IMG/VR virus record: IMGVR_UViG_2537561946_000006
DNA length: 64,000 nt
Origin: a virus
Lineage: Duplodnaviria > Heunggongvirae > Uroviricota > Caudoviricetes
Direction: 5' to 3' (one strand)
The notes under the pieces are model-generated. The model ran no database searches and was not told the origin of the DNA. It saw only the letters and a program-made list of their open reading frames with translations. A program made the translations under genes and the position numbers. Within the stretch, counting starts at the first letter, position 1, and each line of letters opens with the position of its first letter. Below are positions 56,060 through 58,796 of the stretch, piece after piece.

Positions 56060-57220
56060 TTACCTCACATTTAAGTAAACCACGTTCACCTCTTGTGCCG
56101 TATTTGTGCCATTGCGACTTATAATCGCATCGATTTTGCTCGCGTGCTCGGTGAGATGCCCGGCTGAAAGGTGGGCGTATCTTTGAACCATTTCGAGAGT
56201 TTCCCATCCTCCCATCTCTTTAAGTGCAAGAAGAGAGACACCGGACTGAACCAGCCAGCTTGCCCAGGTATGCCTCAGGTCATGGAAGCGGAAGTTGCTA
56301 ATGCCTGCCCGCTTTAACGCTCCCTTCCATGCCTTGTTGCTGTCGGTTCTCATCTTCCTTACCGCTGCTGTTTTTGTTCCGTCGCTTCGGTAGGCAGGTC
56401 TGGTGTGGACAAATACCCATCTCTTATGGAGCCCCTGCTGTTTTCTTAATATCTGGCATGCGGTTTCGTTAAGAGGAACTCCGATCGCATTGCCAGCTTT
56501 TGTTTCATCAGGGTGCATCCATGCCATTTTCTTATCCAGATCGACCTGTGACCACTCAAGGTCTGTAACGTTGGAACGGCGAAGGCCTGTCGTGATTGCA
56601 AACATGACCACAGGGAAGAAATGAGGAGCAATTTCTGCAAACAGGTGCTTCGATTCCTCCTCTGTAAGCCATCTGATTCGTCCATTCTTAACGCGTGGTG
56701 TTGATATTTTGGGCGCCCTGTCAAGCCATCCCCATTCAACAGCTATATTGAGAATAGCGCGAAGTATTGCCAGATGCCGCGTCTTCGTTCCTTTGCTTGC
56801 CAGCTTTGGTTTATACTCCGGCACTGGCTTGCCAAGCCGCAAACACCTGTCCCGGCTCATCTCCCAGTTCAGGCGATGGCGGCGGTTTTCCATCCCGTCT
56901 ACCGCCTCCATTATTTTTTCTGTTGTTATGTTAGAGAGAATGGTTTCTCTGAAGTGCAACATCCAGAACGATATAATGCTCTTGTCATCATCAATGGACT
57001 TCTTATCCGATTTCTCACGCAGCCACCGTATGCAGGCTTCCTTGAATAGCTTTTTCGGTGATTCCCCGAGATTTTTTACTCTCCACGCTTCTGCTTTCAG
57101 ACGATCGTGAAATTCTTGCGCTTGCCTTTTGTCCGATATTTTAAGTGAGCGTCTAACTCTTGATCCATCTGGCGCGACGAAATCGCAGTGCCACGTGCCA
57201 CCGCGTAGTTTGATTGACAT
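56060..57220 (-). CDS. int: tyrosine integrase
   Basis: 386 aa, ...RFHDLRHTWASW...EMVQRYAHL; 3' end 14 bp from att core. Confidence 0.95.
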   Translation of the reverse strand: MSIKLRGGTWHCDFVAPDGSRVRRSLKISDKRQAQEFHDRLKAEAWRVKNLGESPKKLFKEACIRWLREKSDKKSIDDDKSIISFWMLHFRETILSNITTEKIMEAVDGMENRRHRLNWEMSRDRCLRLGKPVPEYKPKLASKGTKTRHLAILRAILNIAVEWGWLDRAPKISTPRVKNGRIRWLTEEESKHLFAEIAPHFFPVVMFAITTGLRRSNVTDLEWSQVDLDKKMAWMHPDETKAGNAIGVPLNETACQILRKQQGLHKRWVFVHTRPAYRSDGTKTAAVRKMRTDSNKAWKGALKRAGISNFRFHDLRHTWASWLVQSGVSLLALKEMGGWETLEMVQRYAHLSAGHLTEHASKIDAIISRNGTNTAQEVNVVYLNVR

Positions 57221-57467
57221 GCTTTAACCTCCTGCACATCAACCGCATTCACCGCGCTATTGTGTCTTACAGACTTAAGCGCCGCAATGCAGTCTGACTT
57301 GCAAATGCGATATGGGCTTTTAGGTTTATCTGGATTTATCTTTGCGGCCTGAAGTCGTCCACTTCGTATCCACTGCGTGATAGTGTCTTTGTCTATGTAG
57401 TGGCACACTGAATTTGGCCACCTGAACAGAGGTGATATGCTCACCTCAGAACAACACAGGTGCTCCA

Positions 57468-57770
57468 ATGAAAAAAAGAAATTTCAGCGCAGAGTTTAAA
57501 CGCGAATCCGCTCAACTGGTTGTTGACCAGAACTACACGGTGGCAGATGCCGCCAAAGCTATGGATATCGGCCTTTTCACAATGACAAGATGGGTCAAAC
57601 AACTGCGTGATGAGCGTCAGGGCAAAACACCAAAAGCCTCTCCGATAACACCAGAACAAATCGAAATACGTGAGCTGAGGAAAAAGCTACAACGCATTGA
57701 AATGGAGAATGAAATATTAAAAAAGGCTACCGCGCTCTTGATGTCAGACTCCCTGAACAGTTCTCGATAA
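57468..57770 (+). CDS. IS911 OrfA
   Basis: [32 protein letters not shown]...; A6G slippery site near 3' end. Confidence 0.9.
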
Positions 57771-57796
57771 TCGGGAAACTCAGAGCGCATTATCCT

Positions 57797-58636
57797 GTGG
57801 TCACACTCTGCCATGTGTTCGGGGTTCATCGCAGCAGCTACAGATACTGGAAAAACCGTCCTGAAAAACCAGACGGCAGACGGGCTGTATTACGCAGTCA
57901 GGTACTTGAGTTGCATAACATCAGCCATGGTTCTGCCGGGGCAAGAAGCATCGCCACAATGGCAACCCTGATAGGCTTCAGAATGGGGCGCTGGCTTGCC
58001 GGCAGGCTCATGAAAGAACTGGGACTGGTCAGTTGCCAGCAGCCTGCGCACCGTTATAAACGAGGTGGTCGTGAACATGTCACTATCCCGAATCACCTTG
58101 GGCGGCAGTTCGCAGTGACAGAGCCAAATCAGGTATGGTGCGGCGACGTGACGTACATCTGGACGGGGAAACGTTGGGCATACCTTGCCGTTGTTCTCGA
58201 CCTGTTTGCAAGGAAACCGGTAGGTTGGGCAATGTCGTTCTCTCCGGACAGCAGACTGACTATCAAAGCGCTGAAAATGGCCTGGGAAATCCGCAGTAAA
58301 CCAGCCGGGGTAATGTTCCACAGCGATCAGGGCAGCCACTATACAAGCAGGCAGTTCCGGCAGTTACTGTGGCGTTACCAGATCAAACAGAGTCTGAGTC
58401 GACGAGGAAATTGCTGGGATAACAGCCCGATGGAGCGCTTCTTCAGGAGTCTGAAAAACGAGTGGATACCGGTGACGGGTTACATGAACTTCAGCGATGC
58501 TGCCCATGAAATAACGGACTATATCGTTGGGTATTACAACGCGCTCAGGCCGCACGAATATAACGGTGGGTTGCCACCAAATGAATCGGAAAACCGATAC
58601 TGGAAAAACTCTAAAGCGGTGGCCAGTTTTTGTTGA
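57797..58636 (+). CDS. IS911 OrfB (DDE transposase, expressed as OrfAB by -1 frameshift)
   Basis: 279 aa with DDE core ...[10 protein letters not shown]... Confidence 0.9.
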
Positions 58637-58796
58637 CCACTACACTACCTTCAGATACGATGCTGCCTCTTCACGAGTGAAGATTTCTTCTTCCACCTGG
58701 AATCTCCATTTATTGAGTTGGTATTATTGCGGTAGGTCTGGATATCATTGAGCAATGAACAGGCCTCATCGAGTGTGAGGCGGTGTTATTTCATGG

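Follow-up and report, generated by a model that had tools for sequence, protein, structure and literature searches.

The DNA examined here is the 64,000-nucleotide stretch of the viral record IMGVR_UViG_2537561946_000006 (Caudoviricetes), referred to below as the window, and our subject is a short gene beside the integrase gene (int) of a lambdoid prophage, which is split in two by an insertion sequence (IS). The explanation that we favour, and that as a whole we hold to be very probably correct, is that a copy of an IS911-like element of the IS3 family transposed into the excisionase gene (xis) of a lambdoid prophage at the thrW attachment (att) site, that Xis would have been lost in this way, and that the prophage would since have been locked into the chromosome. 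The evidence comes from the reading frame that is restored when the IS is removed, from the boundaries of the element itself, and from related phages and genomes in which the same site is empty.

The interrupted gene and the inserted element

When positions 57396-58647, the very interval named in the original prediction, were deleted in silico and the product was translated, a single minus-strand frame was joined into an open stretch of 124 codons, and the remaining two frames were closed at the junction. The restored xis starts at 58696 with a GTG that has GGAG 7 nt in front of it (GGAG-N7-GTG), and ends with a stop at 57097, coding for a small and basic protein of 115 aa with an isoelectric point of 9.5. 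The original prediction had described an excisionase-like frame that reassembles once the IS and one CTA copy are removed, and the 115-aa open reading frame (ORF) agreed with it to the exact coordinates. The features of this region are as follows.

57097..57395, minus strand: 3ʹ part of xis, codons 18-115 and the stop (tblastn of the restored Xis places residues 17-115 at 57396-57100)
57393..57395, no strand: target-site duplication CTA, left copy, a 3-bp direct repeat directly outside the IS
57396..58644, plus strand: IS911-like insertion sequence of the IS3 family, 1,249 bp, TG...CA ends, apparently intact
57468..57770, plus strand: orfA, 100 aa, with HTH_Tnp_1 domain (Pfam, E 5.9e-14)
57719..57725, plus strand: slippery heptamer A AAA AAG (A6G-type) in the X XXY YYZ phase of orfA, the predicted site of a -1 programmed frameshift
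57797..58636, plus strand: orfB frame with the DDE/rve catalytic domain, in -1 phase relative to orfA (Pfam rve, E 1.6e-31; rve_3, E 6.6e-12)
58645..58647, no strand: target-site duplication CTA, right copy, a 3-bp direct repeat directly outside the IS
58648..58696, minus strand: 5ʹ part of xis, codons 1-17, with the GTG at 58696 (the same GTG start is annotated in phage mEp213)

The restored protein was compared with profile collections. It matched the PHROG family phrog_2907, 'excisionase', with an E-value of 2e-51 over residues 1-115 against a profile of 117 positions, the Pfam helix-turn-helix domain HTH_17 over residues 6-51 (35.4 bits, cut-off 27), and the NCBIfam model TIGR01764 'excise' for the excisionase family DNA-binding proteins (33 bits, cut-off 28.8). 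The gene lies beside the att core, directly upstream of and in the same orientation as int (57220-56060), which it overlaps by 124 bp. The original prediction had proposed removal of the IS and translation as its check and a lack of excisionase similarity as the outcome that would speak against it; what the check returned was a frame similar to excisionases, with matches to phrog_2907, HTH_17 and TIGR01764 as well as to the Xis proteins of mEp213 and P22. The assignment of the interrupted gene as a putative excisionase gene of the P22 type is supported by these matches. On both strands of 57097-58696, no unexplained features were found.

A reading of 56800-59000 combined with a script placed the outer ends of the IS at TGTAGTGG... 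and ...CCACTACA, and in the same reading the block had TGTAGTGGCACAC... at its left edge and ...GTTGACCACTACA at its right edge. The terminal inverted repeats agree at 26 of the first 45 bases of the two ends. The original prediction of an IS911-like element with a 3-bp CTA duplication was borne out, with the ends and both CTA copies located by script. Since a 3-bp repeat taken by itself has a 1-in-64 chance of occurring, the empty site was tested as well, and both mEp213 and E. coli were found to carry a single CTA there.

For the empty-site comparison, 56900-57395 was joined to 58648-59150 to give a query of 999 bp. Of the 5,426 complete E. coli genomes, 74 contained the whole of this query as one unbroken match at 96.5-97.7% identity. 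The lambdoid phages mEp213 and mEp043 gave an unbroken match too, mEp213 crossing the junction without a gap; the phages HK75, HK446, HK542 and mEpX2 matched it over the int-xis part. At least seven complete E. coli genomes, independent of one another and differing in host and country of origin, had the same xis::IS junctions. Since the IS-bearing junctions recur in this identical form in independent complete genomes, we rejected an assembly artefact as the source of the split gene.

The IS shows the features by which the IS3 family is recognised, namely a length within about 1.2-1.55 kb, TG...CA inverted repeats, the orfA/orfB layout with a -1 frameshift, a DDE transposase and a duplication of 3-4 bp. 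A -1 shift joins orfA and orfB into an uninterrupted OrfAB of 389 aa, which scored 374.6 bits against the NCBIfam model NF033516 transpos_IS3 (cut-off 160). An Rfam search of the IS for an IS3-type frameshift pseudoknot or element returned none, the sole match being a partial tRNA. The copy in E. coli SC434 is 100% identical and is annotated by PGAP as a transposase with 'programmed frameshift', and copies with at least 99% identity are common on E. coli plasmids (for example of the pO157 type) and chromosomes, where public annotation calls them merely 'IS3 family transposase'. The element looks intact. A second copy of the IS able to recombine with it was searched for within the window, and none was found.

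Prophage surroundings of the interrupted gene

The att core and the integrase gene adjoin the split xis on its left, and beyond them lies the end of another lambdoid prophage.

54493-55245, strand not given: AraC-family regulator in the end of the left-hand prophage
55287-55652, strand not given: truncated transposase fragment of the IS3 family, C-terminal part of rve only
56000..56045, plus strand: att core at the left prophage junction, made up of the last 46 nt (3ʹ) of tRNA-Thr (thrW) (exact match to the 3ʹ part of thrW in E. coli Z1323PEC0014 and to attP of mEp213)
56060..57220, minus strand: tyrosine integrase gene, 386 aa, apparently intact (Pfam Phage_integrase, E 3e-34; phrog_1 integrase, E 1.5e-69)

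The window Int has the same length as that of mEp213 and is identical to it at 377 of 387 aligned positions, the stop being counted (about 97%). The att core lies 14 bases past the int stop. The Rfam tRNA model matched 56000-56045 through its positions 30-71 only, being cut at the 5ʹ end; ARAGORN reported no tRNA at the core, and the 5ʹ half of thrW was not found in the window to the left of 56000. Taken together with its relatives, which are compared in the last section, the module is, as judged by homology, a P22/SfX-type att-int-xis cassette of a lambdoid prophage at the thrW (CP4-6-type) site.

The prophage end to the left of the core carries gpJ, a tail fibre gene, nleB2, nleH, the AraC-family regulator and the IS3-family fragment. 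The type III effector genes nleB2 and nleH were named from the annotation of E. coli genomes matching 46000-55700, and their presence in the left-hand prophage is the reason why the host is probably an attaching-and-effacing E. coli. The arrangement in the window is that of two prophages in tandem, parted by the perfect 46-nt thrW core; it follows from the core at the end of the left prophage that the integrase which inserted it recognised this core too. The exact tandem junction at 56000 was absent from the 5,426 complete E. coli genomes, the best matches covering 56001-64000 only. Over that part, Z1323PEC0014 and 377323_2f are 99.5-99.6% identical to the window.

In SC434, an element of about 12 kb lies between thrW and the same prophage (L004, 6761-18860), with a capsid gene, a baseplate gene and a tyrosine recombinase of its own, and the att copy at the junction of this element with the prophage (18780-18845) is split by about 30 unrelated bases. 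The thrW site is evidently a hot spot, at which differing elements stack beside the immobilised remnant. Elsewhere in the window, genes for tRNA-Met (CAT) and tRNA-Arg (TCT), 100 bp apart, occupy 20364-20616 with no chromosomal context nearby, and this pair is probably prophage-borne.

To the right of xis the window holds early-left lambdoid genes: an ORF of phrog_1229, a dATP/dGTP pyrophosphohydrolase gene, Ead/Ea22, TraR/DksA and the start of exo. Among them, at 59479-60925, lies a cargo pair made up of a transporter of the PACE family (chlorhexidine efflux, Pfam BTP) and a LysR regulator transcribed divergently from it; every relative examined has kept this pair.

Three relatives with the xis::IS allele were examined closely (Z1323PEC0014, SC434 and 2015C-4136CT1). 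In all of them the prophage runs from int to gam and is followed by a truncated P gene and an inverse autotransporter gene, and none of the three holds immunity (cI/cro), replication (O), Q, lysis or morphogenesis genes in this prophage. The remainder in SC434 consists of a hydrolase gene, a few genes of the nin region, another IS3-family element and an integrase fragment adjoining yagU. SC434 keeps a copy of the thrW 3ʹ core (attR-like) 17 kb to the right of int, and excision of the remnant would for this reason be formally possible if Xis were present. In 2015C-4136CT1 (L005, 10437-10568) the right end of the IS abuts the PACE transporter gene, the 5ʹ fragment of xis and two small ORFs (the equivalent of about 58645-59440 in the window) having been deleted. 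This loss shows the pattern of an IS-adjacent deletion, and continuing erosion driven by the IS. That the same degraded prophage bears the xis::IS allele in the three genomes fits an immobilised element that was passed on vertically and stably.

Consequences for excision and competing explanations

The IS separates codon 17 of xis from codon 18, within the helix-turn-helix domain. What the interrupted gene can encode from its own start is an 18-residue peptide, (M)EEEIFTREEAASYLKVV, terminated by a stop after one IS-encoded codon. The remaining 98 codons have no native start; their frame is open back into the left inverted repeat of the IS, and upstream they have in frame no start other than a TTG contributed by the IS. 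We can safely infer from this arrangement that the activity of Xis would be lost. Int appears intact but would lack its recombination directionality factor (RDF), and heterobivalent tyrosine integrases need an RDF for excision. Acting alone, Int should then fail to recombine attL with attR efficiently, which would leave the element locked in the chromosome. It is reasonable to infer, as the original prediction did, that the prophage would be unable to excise, although this outcome is over-determined, the loss of xis not being the sole lesion. Seen in this way, xis::IS would be one step of ordinary prophage decay.

The IS runs in the opposite direction to xis and int, and leftward phage transcripts have to cross 1.25 kb of antisense IS before they reach int. 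A polar effect on int is plausible: the antisense IS across the leftward early transcript probably lowers int expression from upstream phage promoters. We also considered that the IS could separate int from an establishment promoter, and rejected this, as no activator site of the lambda-pI/cII type (TTGC-N6-TTGY) was found near the xis start at 58600-58800, the count of such sites over the whole window being that expected by chance. A scan of 56900-59200 for sigma-70 promoters and terminators gave one promoter-like match, at 58633-58661 on the plus strand, where 2.6 were expected from shuffled sequences. This match is a hybrid, with the -35 element TTGACC inside the right inverted repeat and the -10 element TACGAT in the flanking 5ʹ fragment of xis, and it points outward, antisense to the early-left genes; such matches being rarer here than in the shuffles, it gives no evidence of function.

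Several points weigh against the loss of Xis as the event that fixed the prophage. The window stops before the right end of the prophage (the attR side), so that Xis might not suffice for excision, and the presumed excision deficiency is drawn from the general RDF requirement of heterobivalent tyrosine integrases. The IS may also have landed after the element was already dead, and would then have had no phenotypic consequence. On this account the prophage would have been a remnant through earlier large internal deletions, perhaps with an att site lost or degenerate, and the disruption of xis would be irrelevant to its immobility; we give this some credence, as a tentative alternative. It draws on the observation that the three examined carriers of the allele share the remnant form (int to gam, truncated P and cargo, with no cI/cro, O, Q, lysis or structural genes), and that no full-length prophage with xis::IS was seen among the top matches. 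The order of events, however, is unreadable from these data. Moreover, the attR-like copy in SC434 together with the intact int suggests that the remnant, if supplied with Xis, could still be excised in the manner of other E. coli cryptic prophages, and the loss of xis would in that case contribute to its retention.

The left-hand prophage, with its identical 46-nt att core, may encode a cross-reacting Xis or Int outside the window, and a resident prophage with matching att specificity could then provide Xis in trans, the tandem nleB2/nleH prophage being the candidate. The perfect core between the two prophages and the lambdoid nature of the left element speak for this, but a search of the window gave no second xis or int homologue of the same family, and the arm-type sites to which RDFs bind are as a rule specific to the phage, so that a common core is no guarantee of cross-activity; we consider supply in trans unlikely. 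Far less probable still, and close to negligible in our judgement, is that the C-terminal 98 codons are made as a fusion from the start inside the IS (57097-57468, 123 aa, TTG) and retain partial Xis function. The frame is indeed open from inside the left inverted repeat through the 3ʹ part of xis, but residues 1-17, including the first helix of HTH_17, would be missing, the sigma-70 scan of 56900-59200 gave no promoter-like site on that strand, and a TTG without an evident Shine-Dalgarno sequence is a weak start. Lastly, the insertion could have been selected rather than neutral, if the xis knockout, along with a damping of int, fixed a cargo-bearing remnant, and if the -35 element of the right inverted repeat with the -10 element of the flank (58633-58661) also drove antisense transcription into the early-left operon. 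The cargo in question would be the PACE biocide efflux transporter with its LysR regulator and, in the relatives, also the inverse autotransporter. We think this improbable; if true, it would document IS-mediated domestication of a cargo-bearing prophage.

The explanation that we retain, transposition into xis with loss of Xis, has its main use in annotation. The 'hypothetical' gap between int and an IS3-family transposase, in the window and in at least seven public E. coli genomes, is a split xis pseudogene that automatic annotation leaves unlabelled, and prophage inventories should list the thrW prophage as defective and non-excising. The insertion would also offer a clean textbook case of an IS locking a prophage into the chromosome and could be used as a lineage marker. 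Beyond this its importance is limited, and the xis::IS finding opens no new question.

Comparison with known elements and phages

The nearest named system for the inserted element is IS911 (IS3 family, IS3 group; type copy from Shigella dysenteriae, with IS911A/B in E. coli K-12), which has a length of 1,250 bp, compared with 1,249 bp in the window. Elements of the IS3/IS911 type transpose by a copy-out/paste-in route and duplicate 3 bp of the target. The published layout of IS911 comprises an OrfA of 100 aa, an OrfAB produced through a -1 frameshift and 36-bp inverted repeats (PMC2909936). The window element has in common with it the TG...CA ends, the layout of the 36-bp inverted repeats, the 100-aa OrfA, the A AAA AAG site for the -1 shift to OrfAB, the DDE/rve catalytic domain, the 3-bp target duplication and the -35-like TTGACC in the right inverted repeat. 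The right inverted repeat matches the published one at 33 of 36 positions, and both tips are TGT, not TGA. OrfAB is 389 aa in the window element and 382 aa in IS911.

Nucleotide comparison gave the window element 90.4% and 88.8% identity with the pair of IS911A fragments in K-12, about 91% with copies on plasmids that carry the annotation IS911, and about 88.7% with ISEc52. By the ISfinder convention, isoforms share at least 95% nucleotide identity, and judged on the K-12 IS911A fragments and the plasmid copies the element lies below this value. It is therefore to be regarded, under that convention, as IS911-like and not as IS911 in the strict sense, a distinct but closely related IS. In the original prediction it had been called both 'IS911-like' and, in the heading, simply 'IS911'; with 88.8-90.4% identity to IS911A and about 91% to the annotated copies, the first label is correct and the second is slightly loose.

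The restored Xis is 95.7-96.5% identical to the excisionases of mEp213, mEp043, HK75, HK446 and Shigella phage SfX (thrW/CP4-6-type att), the upper value being that of the annotated excisionase of mEp213 (111 of 115 residues, 96.5%). The window module and mEp213 further have in common the 115-aa length of Xis, its GTG start, the 124-bp overlap with int and an attP core beside int. In these viable lambdoid phages the excisionase gene is whole, whereas in the window it is split by the IS, within an element that is judged a remnant by its relatives. The int/xis record of SfX (U82084.1, 95.7% identical to the window module) is annotated with an IS2 beside xis/int, which suggests independent IS strikes on the same module in Shigella.

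Xis of P22 (116 aa, X04052) is 41.6% identical to the restored protein over 97% of the length (E 9e-21) and belongs to the same helix-turn-helix family, and its gene likewise lies upstream of, and overlaps, a gene for an Int of 387 aa. P22 Xis has been purified, and it binds and bends att DNA (Mattis et al. 2008, as cited in PMC7498355). P22 is nevertheless a different phage with different arm sites, and the function of the window Xis is assigned by homology only.

All parts of the arrangement come from well-described families (an IS3/IS911-like IS, a P22-type Xis, a lambdoid Int and a thrW att site), and it is ordinary and already known in kind; the same xis::IS allele is already present in public genomes, where xis is unannotated. 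The standard way in which prophages of E. coli and Shigella decay is that an IS inserts into their genes and deletions follow beside it, crippling them step by step and fixing them in the chromosome, and IS629 in the prophages of O157 is an example of the inactivation of prophage genes by an IS. In CP4-6 of K-12, an IS30 is nested within IS911A. Compared with the IS-mediated prophage inactivation known from E. coli and Shigella, the event described here is the same process in kind, and only the gene and the IS differ.

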